A stretch of DNA of 64,000 nucleotides. Source: Escherichia phage vB_EcoS_HASG4. This document shows, piece by piece, positions 7,640-31,189 of the stretch; the first letter of the stretch is position 1; every line of letters starts with the position of its first letter. The translations under genes and the position numbers were made by a program. The DNA lies in sequence record NC_100331.1. One strand, 5' to 3'. The notes below the pieces were generated by a model. It searched no databases. It saw nothing but the letters and a program-made list of their open reading frames with translations, and was not told the origin of the DNA.

Positions 7640-8587
7640 TTACTTGTTACGCATATCCATAATCATTTGGCCATCATAACCAGTGCCAACCACAGTCTGC
7701 GGTACACCACCTTGATACTTCTGAGCACGGATCATTTCAACTTCCAGTTGCTTCCAGCGAATCATCTCAGGAGTAATGGTACGTTGCAATGCGGCGTTAG
7801 CTTCAGCTTCTTTCTTAGCTGAGTACAGTTTAGCATCTGCGTCACGTTCATTAGCAATAGCTTGGTTGTTGCGAGCTTCACGATCTGCTTCTGCTTGTTT
7901 AACTTTTTGCTGTGCTTCCTGTTCAACACGAGCCAATTCAGCTTTCGCAGCGTTAACTTGTTCTTCACGAACTTTGGTATTCTGTACCTGTTCCATGATT
8001 ACAGGCGGCAAAGTAATATCCTGAAGGAACACTTGCTTAACTGTGTAACCATAAGGGCGTGCATACTCTTCAACTTCCTGTTGAATTGCAGTTTGCAATT
8101 GAGCCTGAATTTTAGCATCAAACAAATCTTGTGCTTTAGGAACAGACTTACCGAACTCACGAATAGTGGATAACAGCTTCTCAGTTACGTACTTATCTAG
8201 AGCCTGATCCTGAGTACCTGCATTAATACGGTTGATCGGTGCCTTAGAACCATCAAACTGCAACATAACAGTCAGGTCAACAGTGGATTTAAACTTATCC
8301 TGGCTAGGAACCTGAAGTTTATCTAATTTTACAGCAATATCTTTTGTACTAAAAGTATCGAAAGATGCAAATGGATTTACAAGATGAAAACCAGGTAATA
8401 CAGGATTAGGGTCTACTTTACCCAGAAATGTTTGGGTTTTAACCGTACCATCAGAAACAATAGTATATGAATTAAAAGCTAGGATTAAACCTGCTAAACC
8501 AACTACAGCACCAATACCCCAACGTTTAATAGTGCGAATTACTTTTTGCTCAGAAGTCAGTTCTTTCATATTTTTAGTATTAAACAT
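7640..8587 (-). CDS. SPFH/band-7 (stomatin/prohibitin/HflKC-like) membrane protein
   Basis: N-terminal transmembrane helix (IGAVVGLAGLILAF), then a band-7-like core and an Ala/Glu/Gln-rich coiled-coil tail; RBS AAGGAAA before ATG 8587. Confidence 0.65.
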   Translation of the reverse strand: MFNTKNMKELTSEQKVIRTIKRWGIGAVVGLAGLILAFNSYTIVSDGTVKTQTFLGKVDPNPVLPGFHLVNPFASFDTFSTKDIAVKLDKLQVPSQDKFKSTVDLTVMLQFDGSKAPINRINAGTQDQALDKYVTEKLLSTIREFGKSVPKAQDLFDAKIQAQLQTAIQQEVEEYARPYGYTVKQVFLQDITLPPVIMEQVQNTKVREEQVNAAKAELARVEQEAQQKVKQAEADREARNNQAIANERDADAKLYSAKKEAEANAALQRTITPEMIRWKQLEVEMIRAQKYQGGVPQTVVGTGYDGQMIMDMRNK

Positions 8588-8621
8588 ATATTTCCTTTGT
8601 TTTAGTTACAGTTAATAAAAT

Positions 8622-8696
8622 TGGCCGAGGTGACAGGATTCGAACCTGCATAAAGGAATTTAGAAGACTCCTGCCTCTCCCTTAGACTACACCCCG
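8622..8696 (-). tRNA. tRNA-Arg (anticodon TCT, tentative)
   Basis: Acceptor CGGGGTG/CACCTCG, T-arm GCAGG-TTCGAAT-CCTGT, anticodon stem GGAGT/ATTCC with loop CTTCTAA, encoded CCA. Confidence 0.55.
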
Positions 8697-9198
8697 TTTA
8701 AGTATTTTTAAGAACTCTCGTAAAAACTCTTAAAAATACAGACGATACCGGGAGAGTCATAAGTCTCACTCATTAAGTATTTCAAGACAAAATACAGTAA
8801 CGTCTATTATTTTCCAGTTTAAGTCAAGGTGACTTAGTGGTTATGTCCTGCGGTATACTGAGGACTCGGTTAGGTTAGGGTCATGACTCCCCACTTTTTT
8901 GCTGCTACTCAACAGGAGTTATCGCGAATTACCTGTGCTATTGTGCACCATTAGTGGCATCTCTCATGCCAGCATTTCCCACTTTGTGGATAGTTTGAAA
9001 AACTACTCCGATATGGAGAAAGAACTTCACTATCCTAGAATACCTTCTAAAGTTCTTCTTTAGCCTGGACATAGTTAAATCGTAATAAAACTATTCAGCA
9101 GACTGGTTGGTTAGTCTGGAACCAACTACCGCGTGGTTTAGGCAGTGCGCAACTAACCTCGGAAGCTTTTACATTAAAAGCACCAGTTATCCAGTTCT

Positions 9199-9270
9199 TA
9201 CCGACCGTAGGATTCGAACCTACATCTTCCACCAGTTACGGCTTGATAATACCGTTTATACTAGATCGGC
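9199..9270 (-). tRNA. tRNA or tRNA-like (anticodon unresolved, no encoded CCA)
   Basis: Good T-arm GTAGG-TTCGAAT-CCTAC and acceptor GCCGATC/GGTCGGT; anticodon arm not foldable by eye. Confidence 0.4.
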
Positions 9271-9493
9271 AGTGTTACTACATAAGTGATTTCCACACCC
9301 CACTATCAATAAATTAGAGAAGAGTTTAGGGGAGAGGTTTCAGACGCCTCATTTTACACGTTCTAGCCACTAACCGGGATTGCCGCCCCCTGTGTACTAG
9401 TTTTACAACTAACCCACCGACTCTATTCAATGCGCTCCGGTTGGGATTCTGCACTCAGCGTAATCGGCTCGCTGTTCTCTAATTTATGAATAT

Positions 9494-22554: not shown

Positions 22555-24429
22555 ATGAATCGCAATGATGAACTAAAATACAAGGAAATGCAGTCCTTGA
22601 TTAGAAACTGCAAAGAAATTATTGAGGGTTCTGCTGATGAAGAGCTCCTCTTTAATAATGCGAATAAACCCTCTGAGCGTTTCCCTACACAAAGGGATAT
22701 GCTTGCAGGGGAATTGAGTAAATATCTGATTCTAGAAGAAATGCCAATTCAGATTCGAAATGCTCATATGATTGGCGATATTCACTTTCATGATGCTGAT
22801 TACGCTGCTTTAGGCATGACTAACTGTTGCCTAGTAGCCCTGGAAGATATGTTGAAAAATGGTATGAAAGTTGGTAATGCTGAAATTAGCACTCCAAACT
22901 CTATCACTACTGCGGCGGCTATTACTGCTCAGATTATCACTCAGGTTAGCTCCCATCAGTATGGTGGTACTTCTGTAGATCGCCTTGATGAAGTATTAGC
23001 CCCTTATGTTCGTAAGTCCTATGATAAAAATCATGCGTTTGCAAAACGTTGGACTAAGGATGAAGCTAAAGCATCTGTAATGGCTACGGAGATGACTGAA
23101 AAAGAAGTCTATGATGCTTGTCAGGGTCTAGAGTATGAAATCAATACGATGTTCAACTCTAATGGTCAGAGTCCATTTATTACCTTTGGTTTTGGTCTAG
23201 GAACTTCTTGGGAAGCACGTCTAGTACAGAAAGCAATACTGAAAGTACGTATGGATGGCTTAGGTATCAATAAACGTACAGCTATCTTTCCGAAACTGGT
23301 GTTTGTTCTGCGTGATGGCGTAAATATGAAGCCAGGGGATGTTAACTATGACATCAAGAAGTTAGCTATGAAATGTACTGCTGAACGTATGTATCCAGAC
23401 TATATCAGCTATGATAAGGTTGTGGAAGTTACTGGTGACTATAAAGTTTCTATGGGCTGCCGTTCATTCCTAGCTGCTGCAGAAGATGGTGAAACTGCCG
23501 GTCGTAATAACTTAGGTGTTGTTTCTGTAAACTTGCCTAGAATTGCTATCGAAGCTGAAGGAAATATTGATCTATTCTTTGATTTGCTTGAGCTACGTGT
23601 TGATACAGCGTTAAAAGCGTTGGAGTGGAGAGTTGATCGCTTAAAATACATTCAAGCTAAAGCCGCGCCCATCCTCTATATGTCAGGGGCCTTTGGGTTA
23701 CGCTTAGGGCCTGATGAATATGTATTCGATCATTTCTATAACCGTGCTTCTGTATCTCTGGGGTATATTGGTTGCCATGAAATGCTACAGTTCATGTTTG
23801 GCAAAGATGTAGATACAATGTCAGATACCTGTATTAAGTTTGTACAACGTGTTCTACAGTATATGCGGGATAGAGTGGACCAGAAGAAGGAAGAGACTCA
23901 GTTAGGTTATAGCCTGTATGCTACACCATCAGAATCCCTATGTGATCGCTTTTGTCGCCTAGACCGTGAATATTTCCCGGAACATGAAGATATTATGTCC
24001 AAAGGTTACTACACTAACTCACACCACCTCGATGTGGAGCGTAAGGTTGCTCCAAACGTGAAGTTTGATTATGAATCTAATTTTACTCCAATTGCATCTG
24101 GTGGGTGTATTTCCTACGTGGAATTACCAGACATGAAACGATTCCCGGATGCACTGGAATGGGTTATTAACTATGCTGCTAGTAAGGTTCATTACTTTGG
24201 TATTAATACTCCAGTGGATTCTTGTGGTAAATGTGGGTTCTTGGGTGAGACAGTAGCTTCTGAAGATGGATTTAAGTGCCCTATCTGTGGTAATCATGAC
24301 CCTGAAACTCTTGAAGTAACTCGTCGAGTTTGTGGGTATCTTGGAAATCCAGGCGCTCGTCCGTTTAACCCAGGCAAACAACATGAGGTTATGGGCAGGG
24401 TGAAACATCAGGATATTCGAGCTAAATAA
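22555..24429 (+). CDS. nrdD: anaerobic ribonucleoside-triphosphate reductase (class III)
   Basis: 624 aa; C-terminal glycyl-radical motif RVCGYLG and Cys-rich Zn ribbon CGKCG...CPICG. Confidence 0.9.
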   Translation: MNRNDELKYKEMQSLIRNCKEIIEGSADEELLFNNANKPSERFPTQRDMLAGELSKYLILEEMPIQIRNAHMIGDIHFHDADYAALGMTNCCLVALEDMLKNGMKVGNAEISTPNSITTAAAITAQIITQVSSHQYGGTSVDRLDEVLAPYVRKSYDKNHAFAKRWTKDEAKASVMATEMTEKEVYDACQGLEYEINTMFNSNGQSPFITFGFGLGTSWEARLVQKAILKVRMDGLGINKRTAIFPKLVFVLRDGVNMKPGDVNYDIKKLAMKCTAERMYPDYISYDKVVEVTGDYKVSMGCRSFLAAAEDGETAGRNNLGVVSVNLPRIAIEAEGNIDLFFDLLELRVDTALKALEWRVDRLKYIQAKAAPILYMSGAFGLRLGPDEYVFDHFYNRASVSLGYIGCHEMLQFMFGKDVDTMSDTCIKFVQRVLQYMRDRVDQKKEETQLGYSLYATPSESLCDRFCRLDREYFPEHEDIMSKGYYTNSHHLDVERKVAPNVKFDYESNFTPIASGGCISYVELPDMKRFPDALEWVINYAASKVHYFGINTPVDSCGKCGFLGETVASEDGFKCPICGNHDPETLEVTRRVCGYLGNPGARPFNPGKQHEVMGRVKHQDIRAK

Positions 24430-24436
24430 GCTAATC

Positions 24437-24470
24437 AGCCAGGTTGCTAGTCGACCTGGCTTTTATTTTA
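24437..24470 (+). terminator. rho-independent terminator after nrdD
   Basis: Hairpin AGCCAGGT...ACCTGGCT followed by TTTTATTTTATTT. Confidence 0.7.
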
Positions 24471-24471
24471 T

Positions 24472-24500
24472 TTGCTTTCAGCTAAAAATTTATGTATAAT
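24472..24500 (+). promoter_or_regulatory. early promoter (TTGCTT-N17-TATAAT) with conserved leader
   Basis: -35 at 24472-24477, -10 at 24495-24500, followed by conserved ATAAATTTGAGAGGAG leader/SD. Confidence 0.6.
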
Positions 24501-24528
24501 AGATTTATAAATTTGAGAGGAGAAGACT

Positions 24529-24906
24529 ATGAAAGTAAAACCCTATATCATTGTTTCAACCTGTGGGAGCTACCAATTAGCAGTAGAAACCATAGAAGAA
24601 GCTATTTTTGCTGCTACGGGTGATTATTCTCGTCTTGAGGGGGTTGGTTATCCTAGCATTATGGGTAATTGGGTGGAAACTAATTTAGATGTTAATCCAT
24701 ATAATTCTGATTATGAAGATGAAGAAGAGGTACGGAATAACATTGAATTTGTATATAAAAGAATCTTAAGTATCTATGAGTATCAGGGCAGCCCTACTGA
24801 GTATGTGGATATTACTGAAGTAGCTAAGAAGCGCCTTAAATACGTTTATGCCAATTTTTCAAATGAAGACCTGGAAACAGTTGCAGTGGAGTTTAATAAT
24901 GACTAA
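24529..24906 (+). CDS. hypothetical acidic protein (125 aa)
   Basis: ORF-track ORF, first gene of the 24.5-27.8 kb operon. Confidence 0.55.
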   Translation: MKVKPYIIVSTCGSYQLAVETIEEAIFAATGDYSRLEGVGYPSIMGNWVETNLDVNPYNSDYEDEEEVRNNIEFVYKRILSIYEYQGSPTEYVDITEVAKKRLKYVYANFSNEDLETVAVEFNND

Positions 24907-25105
24907 GAATGTGAAACACCTTAAATATCGCTTAATCTATAACGGACGTATGGAAACAGAAGAGCTAGCTCAATTAGCTATTAACTCTAATGAGGTTATG
25001 GTGCGTGCGCTAGCAATTGAAAAGTTGCGGGCTTCTTATGAAAGTCGTATTATGGAACTAGAGGAGAAACTTTATGGCATTCTCGAAGCCGATGCTGCCC
25101 GATAA
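24899..25105 (+). CDS. hypothetical protein (about 68 aa)
   Basis: ATGACTAA stop/start overlap with the preceding gene. Confidence 0.45.
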   Translation: MTKNVKHLKYRLIYNGRMETEELAQLAINSNEVMVRALAIEKLRASYESRIMELEEKLYGILEADAAR

Positions 25106-25295
25106 TGGCTTAAATGCTGCACTGGAAAATGCATTGATGCAGCAGTGGGAGGCTGGATATAAGGATGGGGTTGAATCTTGTGCAAAAATAATGGATATTA
25201 TGGCTAATTCTGTAGTTGGGAAAGCCCATCCAGAAGTATCTGATATACTCCATAACCTTAGTAAAAACTTCAGAGAACAGGTGAAAAATGCGTAG
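25074..25295 (+). CDS. hypothetical protein (73 aa)
   Basis: ORF-track ORF, translationally coupled to neighbours. Confidence 0.45.
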   Translation: MAFSKPMLPDNGLNAALENALMQQWEAGYKDGVESCAKIMDIMANSVVGKAHPEVSDILHNLSKNFREQVKNA

Positions 25296-26109
25296 ATTAA
25301 TTATTATTAGCGGTGCAGGTTTGAGTGTTGAAAGTGGTGTACGAGCCTTCCGTACTGATACTGCTAGTGGTAAAGCATTGTGGGATGATTATGACTTAGA
25401 AGAGGTATGTAATATTCATGCCTTTCGTGGTAATTTTTATCATAAAACTCATATGTTTTACAACAAGCGTCGTGAAGAGCTAAAAACTGTTGAACCCAAT
25501 CTTGCACACTTGCGTATTGGTGAATGGTATAAGAAATATCCAGGTCAAGTAGTAAACTTGACTACCAACGTTGATGACCTTATTGAGCGTGCTGGAGTAC
25601 CAAAAGAAGACATACTCCATATTCATGGGTACCTGAAAGAAATTATCGTAGAGCACGCATTCGACCAGACACATGATATTATTGATATTGGATATAGTTC
25701 TATTGACCCCGATGACTTTGACTGGGTTAAACCTAATGTAATTTTCTTTGGGGAACATGCTCCAGCGTACAAAACAATGTATGAGATTTTTGATGGCATT
25801 ACCAGTCAAGATATGATCATTGTGGTTGGTTGCTCTAACCAAGTAATTAACTTCTACTGGGAATTATTTCCTGTTCTTAATCTGACTGCTGCAAAACTTA
25901 TGGTAGTTAACTACTATGATAGTGCCCTAGCAGCGGAACCAGGCTATCAAGGTATGACTCGTAGTGAGATGTACCAGTTGGAAGAACGTGGGATCCCTTA
26001 CTGGAGTAAAGGTGCGGTGGATGCTTTTAGTGACCCGGGTTTTATTGCTCGTGTAGAAGCTCATCTAGAGGGTAGACCTTATATGCCGGGGAAACAAATA
26101 TGTCCATAA
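25288..26109 (+). CDS. Sir2-like (sirtuin-fold) NAD-utilising protein lacking the Zn-ribbon Cys motifs
   Basis: GAGLSVESGVRAFR (sirtuin GAG.S.ESG..FR), TTNVDDL..AG, catalytic HG (LHIHGY), VIFFGE and VVGCS motifs; no CxxC pairs. Confidence 0.7.
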   Translation: MRRLIIISGAGLSVESGVRAFRTDTASGKALWDDYDLEEVCNIHAFRGNFYHKTHMFYNKRREELKTVEPNLAHLRIGEWYKKYPGQVVNLTTNVDDLIERAGVPKEDILHIHGYLKEIIVEHAFDQTHDIIDIGYSSIDPDDFDWVKPNVIFFGEHAPAYKTMYEIFDGITSQDMIIVVGCSNQVINFYWELFPVLNLTAAKLMVVNYYDSALAAEPGYQGMTRSEMYQLEERGIPYWSKGAVDAFSDPGFIARVEAHLEGRPYMPGKQICP

Positions 26110-26282
26110 TTAAATCTGTGTATACACACCCTGATGATATATTTGTATGGGCGGACGGTAGTTGGTGCTATCGCTGTGAGCTGTGGGAAATGGACTATAA
26201 ATCCGATGACTATGGTGTCATATATGTTGATACGGTTGAGTATGATACGTTCTTAGAAAGGGACAAAAGTGGAAATAAGTAA
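26100..26282 (+). CDS. hypothetical protein (60 aa)
   Basis: ORF-track ORF overlapping both neighbours by a few codons. Confidence 0.4.
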   Translation: MSIIKSVYTHPDDIFVWADGSWCYRCELWEMDYKSDDYGVIYVDTVEYDTFLERDKSGNK

Positions 26283-26775
26283 TACTCCGATTATTTTTCT
26301 AGACATTGATGGAGTGCTCAATTCGAGCATCTCCCACCATCATGCACCTGATGATGAAAAGATTTTCTTTGGAAGTGACTGGGTTTTCAAACCGCTTCTC
26401 AAGGCTTTTCAGGACTTTATTCGTCCTTCTCCGATAATGATTGTTGGAGTATCCTCATGGTTCTCTGTCAGGAATGAGGTGGAGAACGTTCACATTATGA
26501 CCGGATTAGGTCTTATCGATCGTTTTCTAGGTACAACGGATTTTACGGGGGGTGGATTATCTAGGGGTAATTCTGTTCTTCGTTTCGTTGAAAAGCATAA
26601 GCTCAAACATTGGTGTGTGCTGGATGACGCTGGTGCTATGATGTATCAGTATCCAACAGTTATAGTCAATGGTAGGACTGGGATAAATCTTCAAGATTTA
26701 AAAGCTGTTAGCTATATGCTAGAATTTAGCCCAGATCTTGAAATGTGTAAATCCTTACAACAATTTAAGGTGTAA
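26269..26775 (+). CDS. HAD-like hydrolase/phosphatase-fold protein
   Basis: N-terminal IIFLDIDGVLN (HAD motif I DxDG) and later WCVLDD; GTG start. Confidence 0.5.
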   Translation: MEISNTPIIFLDIDGVLNSSISHHHAPDDEKIFFGSDWVFKPLLKAFQDFIRPSPIMIVGVSSWFSVRNEVENVHIMTGLGLIDRFLGTTDFTGGGLSRGNSVLRFVEKHKLKHWCVLDDAGAMMYQYPTVIVNGRTGINLQDLKAVSYMLEFSPDLEMCKSLQQFKV

Positions 26776-26777
26776 AT

Positions 26778-27206
26778 ATGTTCAATAATGTATTCTCTAA
26801 AGAAGCTAACCCAATTTTGGTTAACTTTTGGCGTACTCTCCCGGCTAGCCTGTATAATGAGGCTATTAACTCCTTGAAAATATGGTGTGAGAATAACGAA
26901 ATCTCCTTTGCTTTTAAAGATGATATTGATGAGGCTCCCTGTATTGGTTTAATTGTTCAGGTAGAGGAGGGTCTTGAAGAAATTGTCGGCTGGAAAGAGT
27001 TAGATGAAATGGGCTTAGTTTTTGCGTTAAACTATAAGCTGTTTATGCCTGCTAAGCATCGCCTCGTTGTTAACTATAAAACTAGTGAATCTCCTGGTTT
27101 TCAGGTTAATGAACGTTACGGTTGGTCTTACTCACCGGAAGAAGTGAATGAGGGGATTCAGAAACTTCGACGTTTCGGGTATATGATCCCAGGTTTAACT
27201 GCTTAA
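26778..27206 (+). CDS. hypothetical protein, paralog A of a tandem pair
   Basis: Aligns by eye with 27216-27608 (W.R...SL....L..W......F.F.......PC.G......W.EL...GL..ALN..LF.P). Confidence 0.6.
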   Translation: MFNNVFSKEANPILVNFWRTLPASLYNEAINSLKIWCENNEISFAFKDDIDEAPCIGLIVQVEEGLEEIVGWKELDEMGLVFALNYKLFMPAKHRLVVNYKTSESPGFQVNERYGWSYSPEEVNEGIQKLRRFGYMIPGLTA

Positions 27207-27215
27207 GGAGGCAGA

Positions 27216-27608
27216 ATGGAACAAGTATATTGGCGTCAGATTGACCCTAGTTTGGTGAAACGTGCGGAGAAGCTGCTACAACGTTGGTTGGGGGTAAGAC
27301 AAGCCTCCTTCACTTTTCCGGAGCAGCAAATAGACGATCCTTGTGTTGGTGTTTTCCTATCAGGCTACGCTAGGGAATGGGAATTGGATTGGAATGAATT
27401 GTCTGCTATGGGTTTAATTGTTGCACTAAATTTCTCTTTGTTCCATCCCCGTGGTTTGGCCATATGTCGTGTGCCTGATGACGGTTGTTCGCCCCATCTT
27501 TTACAGATGGAAGATGATATTTGGGAGTACACTCCAGATATTCTCAAAGAAGCTAAAGAACAATTAAATCGTGTTGGAATCTATGTTCTGGGGCTAAATG
27601 ATGAATAA
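27216..27608 (+). CDS. hypothetical protein, paralog B of a tandem pair
   Basis: Shares conserved positions with 26778-27206; RBS AAGGAGG. Confidence 0.6.
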   Translation: MEQVYWRQIDPSLVKRAEKLLQRWLGVRQASFTFPEQQIDDPCVGVFLSGYAREWELDWNELSAMGLIVALNFSLFHPRGLAICRVPDDGCSPHLLQMEDDIWEYTPDILKEAKEQLNRVGIYVLGLNDE

Positions 27609-27795
27609 GGGATTTTGGAAAATAAAAGGTAAAATTTCTAAGTGGAATACTACAGGGAAAATTAGTAAGTCTCTAGAGATAGAGATAGCTAGAATGTTTA
27701 CTGATCCTGATTTTGATATAGGAAAACTAAGTAAAATAGATGCTAAAAAAGTAGATAAGTATATAGAAGAGATTAGAAGTATTTTAAGTGTCTAA
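27598..27795 (+). CDS. hypothetical Lys-rich protein (65 aa)
   Basis: ORF-track ORF, last gene before the terminator at 27803. Confidence 0.4.
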   Translation: MMNKGFWKIKGKISKWNTTGKISKSLEIEIARMFTDPDFDIGKLSKIDAKKVDKYIEEIRSILSV

Positions 27796-27802
27796 TACAC
27801 AT

Positions 27803-27832
27803 AACCGAGTCATTTTGGCTCGGTTTTATCCG
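27803..27832 (+). terminator. rho-independent terminator
   Basis: Hairpin AACCGAGTCATTTTGGCTCGGTT followed by a T-rich tract. Confidence 0.6.
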
Positions 27833-27871
27833 TACTCAAGACCAATGATAGCATTCTCTTTAAAAATTTAC

Positions 27872-27900
27872 TTGCACGATGCTCAAAATCTTGATATAAT
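27872..27900 (+). promoter_or_regulatory. promoter (TTGCAC-N17-TATAAT) driving the long leader and primase-helicase gene
   Basis: -35 at 27872-27877, -10 at 27895-27900. Confidence 0.55.
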
Positions 27901-28398
27901 AGTTATATTGAATTGAGAGACATTAGTAAAAATTGATTTTGCTAATTTTTCTTGTTTACAATCCGCGATACGGAACAGTTAGGCTGCCCCATTAAGGGTT
28001 GTTTTAACTGTTACGTGTTAGTTTTTAAACAAATAATTAATAGAATACTTAGCGATCTACACCCCGTAGGAACCCTGGTAAGGCCTCGAAGCAACCTAGT
28101 GTGAGGTGGTTGTGAAGTGAGACGGGAAGAGTGAAAAACTCTGAGAAGTGATGACGTAAGGTATACTGCATCTAGTATGAGCTAGTACATGAAGCATTAG
28201 GTGAGCAAATCTGGCTTAGCGGCCATCCTCAAGGATTTGTGCGGTATAGTGAAGCGGCAGTGTAGCGTGAAAGTGGAAGTTGCCACCCCACTTCAGTATT
28301 TGCAATTAATTTGTTGAGAAATTGACAGTAACAGTTGTTCTATTCTTTCTGAATAGTCCTAAAGAAAACTTATTTCATTTCCAACACAGGAGTATTGT

Positions 28399-31189
28399 TG
28401 TGTTTTCAATCCTACAAGGTCATGCAGGATTTCATCGCGATTTAGCCACAGGCAATTGGCGAGAAGTTAAAGCAGAAGACTATCTTTTTGCTAAAAGATT
28501 TTCCTCAAAGCATCCTGAAGGTAAACCAGCTTCAATGCCCTTCAAGTTTGATGTAATTGACGAAATTGATCCTCAAACCCTAGTAGAAATGCTTCCTCTT
28601 ATGAGACGTTTAACGTCTGACCCTCATATCGTTGCGGTACGAGGTCGATGTCTTGCACCTAAAAATAATGTGCGACGTAAGAAGGGCAACTTTAATGTAT
28701 CTAATCCAAGTCATATAATCGCAATGGATGTGGATGGTATTGTAGATACAGGAGGTTGTAACAAGTTTGATCTTGTTGGTATGGCTCGACATATTATTAG
28801 GATGTTAAATAGTATTAGTGAGGATATGTTTCCTCTTGATGCAGGGTTTATTGCTCATGCATCATCTTCGGCTGGCCTAAAACCAGGTATCCGAATGCAC
28901 TTAATACTAGAATCTAATGTTAAAGTTACACAGGGTCAGATCAAGTTCTTATTTACATCTATCAACGAAAGTAGTAGACAAAAGTATGGCTTTGATATTG
29001 CCGACTTAGCTTATTACTCCTCCGTACAGCTTCATTACTTTGCAGATCCTTTATTTATTGATGGTATAGTCGATCCGTTTAAAGCGGAGGGTGCTTCACG
29101 TCTGGTATTTGTTAAGGGTTCGAAGGTAAATTTGCCTAATAATCTAGTTGACTATGAAACAACTAGAGGTGAGTTTAAGGAGGAGTTCTATTCTTTACTC
29201 GACCAAATTAAAGGTAAAAAAGCTGCCTCTGATAAAGTAGAGGAAACTATCAGCGAACTAGAAGAAGCTGAGGATGGAGTGTATCTACGTATTATTCCAA
29301 AGCTATATCACCGAGCGCTAGAGGATGGAGTAGATTTTGGTTGGCTAGAAAAAGAAATCCGCCCAGCTTTATCAGAATATATTGCAACTAAAGATAATAG
29401 CCGTAATATTCAGGATTATTTCAATAACGGACGGAAGCAGGCATTAAAAGCCTTTGTGAATAACTCTAAGCGTGAGATCCCTGAAGTATTAAAAGGTATC
29501 CCCCTTAAAAAGCTAGAAACTAATTCACTAGAGACCGACAACTTCTTGAAATTAAATACTGTACCACCAGAAGGTTATATGACTTTTGTAAAAGCAAGTC
29601 TAGGTACAGGTAAAACTACGGCGGTTGTGCGTTGGTTAGATTCAGGAGTTATTAAGGGTAATTTCTTAGCAATTACCAATACTCGAGCACTGGTATCTTC
29701 AAATGCTAAGAAATTTAGTGCAGGACAATATGATAAGTCTGTAGATATGCTTAATTTTAAGCGTGGTGCTATTGACCGTATGTCCACAACTATTCACTCT
29801 TTGCATAAGTTCAAGAGTTTTATTGGTCAAATTGATGCAATCTTTATCGATGAATGTGATGCAGTAATGAATGACCTATTATTCGCCCCAGTTGTTAAGC
29901 AACGTCGTGAGTGTATTCAGGTTCTTCGTGATATTCTTGCAACTGCAAAAATCATTATACTATCAGATGGTGATATTAGTGCTGAAACAATTGAAGCATA
30001 TGGTTCTTTAATTGAGTTCGATAAACCAGTAGCATTTTACAATCATCACCGTAAAATGCTGTCAAAAGCTCATGCTTATGAGTTCCCTGATGAGTCCAGT
30101 ATTTGGGTTGCACTTCAGACTTCTCTAGAGATGGGTGAGAAATCTATTCTAGTATCTGATTGTGGCCCTGATGAGCTTAATGAGAAGGGTATGGCACTAC
30201 GTCGTAATACGGGTGCATTAGTTAAGGAAATCCATTCAAACTCTACCTCAGATGTGGATATTCGACGTATTCTGGATTACACAACTAATGAGTTAATTGA
30301 TCAACAAATTGATTGCTTATTATGTAGTCCATCCGTAACGAGTGGAGTTGACTTCAACTATTTTGATAACGTATTTGTTATTACTAGAACCAGTAATCAA
30401 GCGCCAAACATGCGTTTCCAAGCAATCAGGCGCGACCGTGGTGCTCAGAATATCTATTATTTTATTGATAAATCCACTAGTGGATTCTCCGCAGGTTCTG
30501 AACAGTATAACATTGATGAGGGTTGGCTGGAGTTAGCACAGCAATTATACGCACGTCGCAGGGAGCTGGAATCTAGGAACTATACTAGTACTTTACGTTA
30601 TTACTTGCTTGATCAGGGTGCAACTATTGATATTTTCAGCGAAAGCTGGGGAACTATTGAAGGTGCTGGTAAAGAGTACACAGAAGAGCGAATTAAAGCT
30701 ATTCTACATTCAACTCCGGATTATTGTGCTCCACGTCATGCGGATGCGTATGAAGCTAAGCTACTTCTTGTTCGCTATTATCATCTTGAGTCTATTAAAG
30801 ATGTAACAGTTGAGCATGTTGAACAATATATCAAGGATAAACCGAATGATCGAGCAGCATTCTTCCATAAAATGCACGCGATGTTCTGGGAAGATATTAA
30901 GAAGTGTTCAAATGTCACTATCAAACCTTTCATAGAAGCTCTGAAAGGTAAGAAGAAAGATTTCTTCCTTAAAACAGGTCAGAGTGCTAACCCAAAATAT
31001 GCGAGAATGTATCTTGGTATGATGGGTATTGGTAAGGATATGAACACTGAAAATATTGTAGACTGGTACAGAACCTATTGTAAAATCGAGTGTATGCCAA
31101 TTCCTTATAAGTTCATGACTGACGAGGAAAAACATATGCATGATGAAGCAATGTCAGAGCTAGGTGCTAGAAATGACAGTGAAGAATAA
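28399..31189 (+). CDS. replication primase/helicase-like NTPase (about 930 aa)
   Basis: Start placed at GTG 28399 (AGGAG 7 nt upstream); HIIAMDVDG acidic motif in N-terminal half; Walker A LGTGKTT and Walker B IFIDECD in C-terminal half. Confidence 0.7.

Follow-up and report, generated by a model that had tools for sequence, protein, structure and literature searches.

Phage sirtuins have been described and interpreted before. Iyer, Burroughs, Anantharaman, and Aravind predicted that such proteins remove 2′-phosphates from RNA in the manner of KptA, and named Escherichia phage SP15 as the prototype of a neighbourhood that combines a sirtuin with a SAK-HAD protein (Iyer et al. 2022; Viruses 14:1977; PMC9503650). 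The Sir2/CobB protein of KVP40-like vibriophages, in which the Zn ligands are absent and the catalytic His is retained, was modelled on CobB in a paper that also lists T5 as a Sir2/CobB carrier (Skliros et al. 2016; PMC5107563), and the T5 record itself annotates the gene as Sir2, citing Wang et al. 2005. Our searches of the literature turned up no biochemical work on a sirtuin of T5-like phages.

Here, we examine an operon of Escherichia phage vB_EcoS_HASG4 (NC_100331.1) that encodes a sirtuin, a HAD phosphatase, and a pair of DUF7415 proteins, and that occupies positions 24472–27832 of the 64,000-nucleotide stretch analysed (hereafter ‘the window’). Positions 24400–27900 are 100% identical to Escherichia phage vB_EcoS_EASG3 (MK373799.1; Demerecviridae, Tequintavirus) and are matched by more than 100 T5-like phages at 86–93% identity; the operon proteins are 86–100% identical across Tequintavirus. 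Since this is the same operon as T5.100–T5.107 and as that of SP15, which is itself a Tequintavirus, the RNA-repair prediction applies directly to it. The operon is thus already annotated in T5, and the literature already covers both phage sirtuins without Zn ligands and the pairing of a sirtuin with a HAD protein; the value of the present analysis lies in confirmation and in constraints, namely that the module is dispensable, that no ligase or kinase of its own was detected in the phage, and that the HAD protein is also tied to nicotinamide adenine dinucleotide (NAD+) salvage.

The reading that we favour, with a probability of about 0.4, is that a Tpt1-like sirtuin and a HAD phosphatase heal RNA ends. 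We infer the RNA substrate and the chemistry as follows. The targets would be broken RNA ends, above all transfer RNAs (tRNAs) that had been cleaved by anticodon nucleases of the host or by toxins. In a first step resembling that of Tpt1/KptA, the RNA 2′-phosphate would attack C1″ of NAD+ and nicotinamide would leave; in a second step, the 2″-OH of ADP-ribose, activated by His, would attack the phosphate, yielding 2′-OH RNA and ADP-ribose 1″,2″-cyclic phosphate. The HAD phosphatase would strip terminal 2′/3′-phosphates from RNA or, alternatively, remove phosphate from the ADP-ribose by-product. Because no RNA ligase was detected in the phage, sealing would fall to a ligase of the host, for example RtcB. 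The retention of His113 speaks for this reading, since a Tpt1-like reaction in two steps would depend on this residue no less than deacylation does. Potential substrates are offered by the phage itself, which has at least 23 tRNA genes (window 173–9271; MK373799.1 27793–31486, our locus L061), and a counter-defence role for the operon is plausible. ARAGORN calls one of the tRNA genes, at window 9198–9271, as tRNA-Ser with the unusual anticodon ACT.

Judged by its sequence, the sirtuin is genuine and apparently active. It is encoded by gene 4 (25288–26109, + strand; T5.102 orthologue, phrog_2162) and, by Pfam match, fold, and motifs, is a Zn-less class III (CobB-like) sirtuin of 273 amino acids. 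Residues 9–186 match positions 1–178 of the 180 in Pfam SIR2 (PF02146) with E = 1.8e-23 and 83.9 bits (cut-off 24), and the motifs GAGLSVESGVRAFR, TTNVDD, HIHG, FFGE, VVGCS, and VVN can be read in the protein. Apart from a chance Pellino match, PF02146 was the only Pfam family found at E < 0.1, and SIR2_2 was not among the matches. The closest solved relative is Escherichia coli CobB (1S5P; E = 4.5e-18 with the sequence alone and 1.8e-27 with a clade profile), followed by Sir2Af and SIRT5. An AlphaFold2 model (pLDDT 89, pTM 0.88) has the two-domain sirtuin fold, and Foldseek aligned it to CobB (1S5P/6RXQ) with E of about 1e-16 and a TM score of 0.83.

In an alignment of 26 members of this sirtuin clade (55–80% identity), the residues G9-A10-G11-x-S13, F21, R22, Y58, R61, N94, D96, H113, G114, F154, E156, S183, and N208 are invariant (26/26). 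The NAD+-binding and catalytic residues align to those of CobB, with the Gln of TQNID being Thr, and the invariant pair Y58-x-x-R61, the class III signature that binds acidic acyl groups such as those of succinyl- and malonyl-lysine, aligns to CobB FYNARR. The clade departs from other sirtuins in having TTNVD for TQNID, GCSNQVIN for GTSxxVYP, and an invariant Cys41. None of the four Zn-ligand Cys residues is present in any of the 26 members, and no Cys lies between H113 and F154; the protein has three Cys in total, none in a CxxC pair. The three-stranded sheet of the Zn module nevertheless persists in the model (E114–122, 129–133, and 147–151), so that the metal ligands alone appear to have been lost from it. 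Sequence and model together suggest that the sirtuin derives from CobB/class III deacylases and that it lost the zinc ligands while keeping the NAD+ site, the small-domain sheet, and the catalytic His. All of its NCBIfam matches are to CobB-type deacylase models, and all fall below cut-off, the CobB equivalogs not being reached (NF040867, 87.8 versus 320 bits; NF001753, 98.2 versus 243 bits).

A first-pass annotation, made from the letters of the window alone, had reported sirtuin motifs without Zn-ribbon cysteines and a neighbouring gene that starts with the HAD motif DxDG, and had named profile searches against Pfam SIR2 and HAD as a check. These observations agree with ours: the searches return PF02146 for gene 4 (at the E-value above) and PF18143 for gene 6, and the catalytic His113 and Asn94, whose absence would have counted against the annotation, are retained, as is Asp96.

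The context of the sirtuin in other phages suggests a role in RNA repair. We typed the neighbours at 55 IMG/VR loci that encode members of the clade and at three loci obtained from protein look-ups (numbers beginning with L are ours). About thirty T5-like loci share the order of the window (NrdD, small genes, Sir2, gene 5, HAD, and DUF7415 a and b), and on one short contig NrdD is followed by HAD, two small genes, and Sir2. In V5/Ro1-like phages, a sirtuin with 61–63% identity stands in the array Metallophos – Rnl1 (RNA_lig_T4_1) – cREC – AAA_33 kinase – SIR2 – DNA ligase, and phages resembling Erwinia pEa_SNUABM_55 have Metallophos – Rnl1 – kinase – unknown – Sir2 – DNA ligase. The combination of a cREC/cyclic phosphodiesterase (CPDase), a kinase, an Rnl1-type ligase, and an NAD+-consuming enzyme mirrors the Trl1 plus Tpt1 pathway of fungi and plants. 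Sirtuin loci linked to Rnl1, kinase, and phosphoesterase genes make up about 15 of the 55 IMG/VR loci, and a 608-kb jumbo-phage contig encodes a sirtuin with 36% identity that has Rnl1 two genes upstream. In other groups, the partners of the sirtuin are unrelated proteins without a known function, and Pfam scans of the surrounding genes yielded little at ECO340P2-like loci and at several metagenomic ones.

This typing independently reproduces the neighbourhoods given in section 3.7.3 of PMC9503650. Close homologues of the sirtuin, which in V5/Ro1-like and Erwinia pEa_SNUABM_55-like phages are 47–63% identical to it, adjoin Rnl1, polynucleotide kinase, and phosphoesterases, an arrangement that lends support to the RNA-repair prediction. 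The context in other phages points to RNA-end repair over manipulation of NAD pools, the latter being one of the functions that the first-pass annotation had put forward.

Some of these loci also contain genes of NAD+ metabolism or counter-defence. In Raoultella phage Ro1 (L003, 1–2209 and 14608–15114) and in an Erwinia phage locus (L005, 622–3416), the sirtuin/RNA-ligase operon is divergent from genes for a Nampt-like protein and phosphoribosyl pyrophosphate synthetase (Prs), and Ro1 has a NADAR gene 6 kb downstream; NAD+-consuming and NAD+-regenerating functions are therefore clustered in those phages. In Escherichia phage ECO340P2 (L004, 3940–4215), a gene of the Acb2/Tad1-hairpin type, which belongs to the anti-CBASS/Thoeris sponges, lies 4 kb upstream of the sirtuin in the same direction.

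The second enzyme of the operon, HAD_SAK_2, is encoded by gene 6 (26269–26775, + strand; 168 amino acids; T5.105 orthologue). It reads FLDIDGVLN near its N-terminus and matches PF18143 with E = 1e-19 and 71.7 bits (threshold 27.5); motifs I (D12/D14), II (S62/S63), III (R99), and IV (D119/D120) do not vary across 13 homologues with identities as low as 38%. The family was defined from ‘Swiss Army Knife’ RNA-repair proteins (Pfam HAD_SAK_2). Family membership and intact motifs indicate that the protein is probably a phosphatase, for which activity on RNA 2′/3′ ends is the predicted family role; a search of PDB sequences, T4 Pnkp included, returned no match even at E ≤ 10. The gene bears the label ‘Sir2 (NAD-dependent deacetylase)’ in RefSeq and PHROG records, including T5.105 (L127, 4089–4595) and NBSal005 gp075 (L002, 3376–3882), with the effect that many T5-like records show two ‘Sir2’ genes. 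We reject this second sirtuin as a mis-transfer via phrog_18062, the gene matching HAD_SAK_2. A 187-amino-acid gene beside Prs in Ro1, considered as a possible HAD protein, was likewise ruled out and encodes a winged helix–turn–helix (wHTH) protein.

The context of HAD_SAK_2 in other phages is mixed. Distant relatives are separated from Metallophos – Rnl1 – kinase clusters by about 1.7 kb (L085, L091, and L092), and in two phages of about 150 kb, Serratia phage vB_SmaM-ChuuTotoro (L063, 6603–10217) and a second one (L064, 6606–10569), homologues with 38–39% identity form part of an operon of the order wHTH – HAD – Prs – Nampt. Precomputed Pfam hits and tblastn detected no sirtuin or Rnl1 within 7 kb of these ChuuTotoro-like loci. 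Because the contexts divide between RNA repair and NAD+ salvage, two substrate classes come into consideration, and the HAD protein could act on an RNA end or on a phosphate derived from ADP-ribose or NAD. The link between HAD_SAK_2 and NAD+ salvage is new here, being absent from the 2022 survey (PMC9503650).

Several points weigh against RNA-end healing. The sirtuin keeps all deacylase hallmarks, and its sequence would be equally compatible with a plain protein deacylase. No operon protein matches the Tpt1/KptA families of Pfam, and action on RNA is not known for any sirtuin. In tblastn searches of the whole EASG3 genome with the proteins of Ro1 and pEa55 as queries, no Rnl1, kinase, or cREC was found (best E = 0.059), and the one weak match, a Metallophos one (E = 3e-4), fell in another part of the genome. 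Healing and sealing of the T4 type generates no 2′-phosphate. Three divergent T5-like loci (L053, L055, and L056) hold the sirtuin and DUF7415 without the HAD gene, whose product, given the ChuuTotoro-like operon, may have a small NAD+/ADP-ribose metabolite as its substrate. Finally, gene adjacency in the early regions of phages is weak evidence for a common function.

Among the alternatives, the one that fares best, which we regard as possible and yet doubtful, is that the sirtuin is a phage version of CobB. It would then be a protein lysine deacylase dependent on NAD+, either a deacetylase or a desuccinylase, and would, at an early stage of infection, reset the acylation of proteins of the host or of the phage, with the HAD and DUF7415 proteins functionally unrelated to it. 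This is how most GenBank annotations read the gene and how Skliros et al. (2016; PMC5107563) read the Zn-less vibriophage sirtuins, and it accords with CobB, SIRT5, and Sir2Af being the best matches in sequence and fold, with the CobB-type identity of every NCBIfam match, and with the invariance of the catalytic His, Asn, and Asp, of FGE, and of the class III YxxR. Against it stand scores far under all CobB equivalog cut-offs and the clade-specific changes (TTNVD and GCSNQVIN), which fall at conserved substrate and NAD-ribose positions. The host, moreover, already has a CobB, and deacylation does not account for the recurrence, in several phage lineages, of genes for RNA ligase, kinase, and phosphoesterases beside the sirtuin.

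It is unlikely that the sirtuin is an NADase or a protein or nucleic-acid ADP-ribosyltransferase that alters the host NAD+ pool or a target, as the first-pass annotation had suggested on the ground that the Zn ligands are missing. In favour of this reading, the NAD+ site is intact, the gene is accessory and expressed early, ADP-ribosylation is known for some sirtuins (PMC4518038), and the position of the V5-like sirtuin operon beside Prs/Nampt NAD+ salvage genes would fit heavy use of NAD+. The argument from Zn-lessness is not supported, however: the characterised ADP-ribosylating SirTM sirtuins show the opposite pattern: they keep the Zn domain, have Gln in place of the catalytic His, and are linked to a macrodomain gene (PMC4518038). 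In gene 4, His and YxxR are kept and the best matches are deacylases; neither Pfam SIR2_2 nor the PADLOC defence models, which include NADase SIR2 models, gave a match (for PADLOC, none among all nine operon proteins), the defence NADases being members of a different profile family. Pfam finds no macrodomain among the operon proteins, and the operon holds no other reversal enzyme. Depletion of NAD+ would also harm a phage that relies on an NAD+-dependent DNA ligase, as T5 does.

Least probable is that the sirtuin and the HAD protein act on small NAD+/ADP-ribose metabolites as part of NAD+ homeostasis against NAD+-targeting immunity, for example by processing or detoxifying ADP-ribose phosphates or signalling nucleotides, or by base exchange or phosphoribosyl transfer followed by dephosphorylation. 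The sirtuin-free wHTH – HAD – Prs – Nampt operons of the two phages of about 150 kb, the divergent Prs – Nampt genes of Ro1 and pEa55-like phages with NADAR downstream in Ro1, and the first identification of CobB as a phosphoribosyltransferase substitute (cited in PMC9503650) speak for it. Against it, the association is based on few loci, no sirtuin is known to have a dedicated small-molecule role, and the EASG3 annotation, with no similarity search for these two having been made, contains no Prs or Nampt.

As regards the locus as a whole, we conclude that the operon is an early-transcribed, dispensable accessory unit common to T5-like phages. The first-pass annotation had described a promoter-to-terminator accessory operon of nine small genes between nrdD and the replication initiator, and this description stands on all counts. 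Nine ORFs (open reading frames) on the + strand, corresponding to the GenBank coding sequences EASG3_00126–00134, lie between nrdD (22555–24429) and the gene for an origin-binding/helicase protein of 929–955 amino acids; an N25-like promoter and bounding hairpins delimit the unit, and a natural deletion removes the sirtuin and the HAD motif.

Upstream, the unit is bounded by the intrinsic terminator of nrdD (24437–24470, + strand), which consists of a hairpin with a 10-bp GC-rich stem (24437–24461; RNA fold −16.1 kcal/mol, z = −4.2) and a run of U residues (T in the DNA). The terminator is conserved in eight T5-like phages, T5 among them, its stem shows compensatory changes in two divergent T5-like loci (L036 and L053), and it is annotated both in the GenBank record of EASG3 and in T5. 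It is followed by a sigma-70 early promoter of the T5 N25 type (24472–24508, + strand), with the −35 element TTGCTT at 24472–24477, a spacer of 17 nucleotides, the −10 element TATAAT at 24495–24500, and a predicted +1 at A24507. We recognized this promoter from the sequence itself, from its conservation, and from its resemblance to N25: positions −12 to +2 (TATAATAGATTTAT) agree at 13 of 14 with the non-template strand of T5 N25 as quoted in PMC7472727. The −35 TTGC and the TATAAT are invariant across eight T5-like phages, T5 included. A simple consensus scan, whose matches were no commoner than in shuffled sequence, missed the promoter because its −35 hexamer agrees with TTGACA at just three of six positions. 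N25 is the promoter of the commercial ‘T5 promoter’ expression vectors, and the resemblance therefore implies strong early transcription by the host sigma-70 RNA polymerase.

Downstream, the unit ends at an intrinsic terminator (27803–27830, + strand), a 10-bp hairpin (27803–27825; −13.5 kcal/mol, z = −4.6) followed by UUUUAU, which is annotated in GenBank and has an equivalent in T5; the T5 reference record carries the same promoter, T5.100–T5.107, and the same terminator. A scan of 24300–28500 against Rfam gave a chance snoRNA (E = 0.97) as its sole match. Beyond the operon, a second N25-like promoter at about 27868–27900 is followed by some 420–500 nucleotides without a convincing ORF before the origin-binding/helicase gene, the start of which varies by record (28322 with TTG, 28400, or further upstream in NBSal005). 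Between 27830 and 28400, the RNA fold is moderately more stable than in shuffles (z = −2.75), and no Rfam family matches.

The T5-like genome IMG/VR UViG 2706796320 (108,050 bp; L080, 6929–7315) carries a natural in-frame deletion of 1,309 bp that corresponds to window 25149–26457. It joins the first 24 codons of gene 3 to about residue 64 of the HAD protein, so that the sirtuin, gene 5, and the HAD DxD motif are gone; in Shigella phage SHSML-45 (KX130863), the blastn match is confined to the 3′ end of the HAD gene. The module is therefore dispensable for propagation, and the sirtuin is not a conserved core gene; the first-pass annotation had named the opposite result, a conserved core gene with a known non-NAD function, as one that would refute its proposal.

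The two genes that the same annotation had recognized as adjacent paralogues are indeed related to each other (31% identity, E = 2e-18), and both encode DUF7415 proteins (PF24187; 123 and 107 bits against a threshold of 27). Paralogue a (gene 7; 26778–27206, + strand; T5.106 orthologue; E = 5e-36) has 142 amino acids, and paralogue b (gene 8; 27216–27608, + strand; T5.107 orthologue) has 130. A profile search with DUF7415 returned 161 representative clusters (E < 1e-3), mostly of small phage proteins, that have a core of about 55 residues in common. This core (WNELS..GL...N..I.HP.GLA) occurs in fusions with a MazZ-like dATP/dGTP pyrophosphohydrolase (PF04447) and with a thymidylate kinase (P0208, P0223, and P0225), and also in many stand-alone phage proteins of 70–100 amino acids. 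Profile–profile comparison with hhalign among HAD, cREC, kinase, Metallophos, DUF7415, gene 1, and two unrelated 161-amino-acid sirtuin neighbours (of the Erwinia and ECO340P2 types) gave probabilities below 2% throughout.

The five remaining ORFs, all on the + strand, have PHROG families of unknown function as their sole assignment. Gene 1 (24529–24906; 125 amino acids; phrog_11748) has no match in Pfam, NCBIfam, or PADLOC and is variable among T5-like phages, being 46–61% identical or absent in many relatives. Gene 2 (24899–25105; 68 amino acids; phrog_5236) is given here from its GenBank start, the maximal ORF encoding 85 amino acids from 24848, and is followed by gene 3 (25074–25295; 73 amino acids; phrog_5827). 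Gene 5 (26100–26282; 60 amino acids; phrog_5116) usually comes directly after the sirtuin in T5-like phages, and gene 9 (27598–27795; 65 amino acids; phrog_29527) is absent from T5 itself.

We suggest, as a tentative extension of RNA-end healing, that the phage sirtuin clade might be the first of the sirtuins to act on nucleic acid, as an NAD+-dependent RNA 2′-phosphotransferase convergent with Tpt1/KptA and paired in T5-like phages with a HAD phosphatase. The pair would heal the ends of tRNAs cut by nucleases, sealing being left to a host ligase. The DUF7415 pair could be a new RNA- or target-binding accessory, and the HAD protein could in addition clear the by-product ADP-ribose phosphate and so link repair to NAD+ salvage. 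The core of this idea, an RNA 2′-phosphotransferase, is that of Iyer et al. (2022); the HAD–NAD+-salvage link and the co-occurrence of DUF7415 are added here. If it is true, RNA becomes a new class of sirtuin substrate, and a defined means of countering immunity that cleaves tRNA can be assigned to T5-like phages, a group in wide use for phage therapy and as models.

Compared with known systems, the operon is nearest to T5.100–T5.107, with which it has the promoter, genes, and terminator in common; it differs in having the additional gene 9 and in being without T5.103. The survey that covers this neighbourhood (PMC9503650) is silent on the DUF7415 pair, on the missing phage RNA ligase, and on the linkage of HAD with Prs and Nampt. 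With E. coli CobB, SIRT5, and Sir2Af1/2, the sirtuin shares the fold, GAGxS, F-R, the N/D nicotinamide pocket, the catalytic His, FGE, the Ser of GTS (GCS here), and YxxR. It differs from CobB in being without the four Zn Cys residues, in having TTNVD for TQNID, VIN for VYP, and the invariant Cys41, in falling below the equivalog thresholds, in being restricted to phages, and, in many members of the clade, in an insert of about 35 residues. For the KVP40-like protein, activation of Acs by deacetylation was proposed (PMC5107563); its context is that of an NAD-salvage phage and differs from that of the window. Unlike SirTM, the phage sirtuin keeps H113, is without Zn ligands, and has no macrodomain in its operon, and with the defence SIR2 NADases (ThsA, DSR1/2, and SIR2-HerA) it has the sirtuin superfamily and the consumption of NAD+ in common and no profile match.

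Two RNA-repair systems remain to be compared. The T5-like genome differs from T4, with its Pnkp and Rnl1, in that neither Rnl1 nor a kinase was detected and in that the HAD protein has no sequence match in PDB; it resembles T4 in having a HAD DxD phosphatase like the C-terminal domain of Pnkp, in the logic of counter-defence against anticodon nucleases, and in having sirtuin relatives that adjoin Rnl1 and kinase genes. The likeness to Tpt1/KptA is a proposed functional analogy; the folds are unrelated (ART-like versus a Rossmann sirtuin), and no sequence similarity exists. What the two would have in common is the use of NAD+ in a two-step chemistry that proceeds via C1″ and then the 2″-OH of ADP-ribose, together with the company that the V5-like sirtuin gene keeps, namely adjoining genes for a ligase, a kinase, and a CPDase-like protein.

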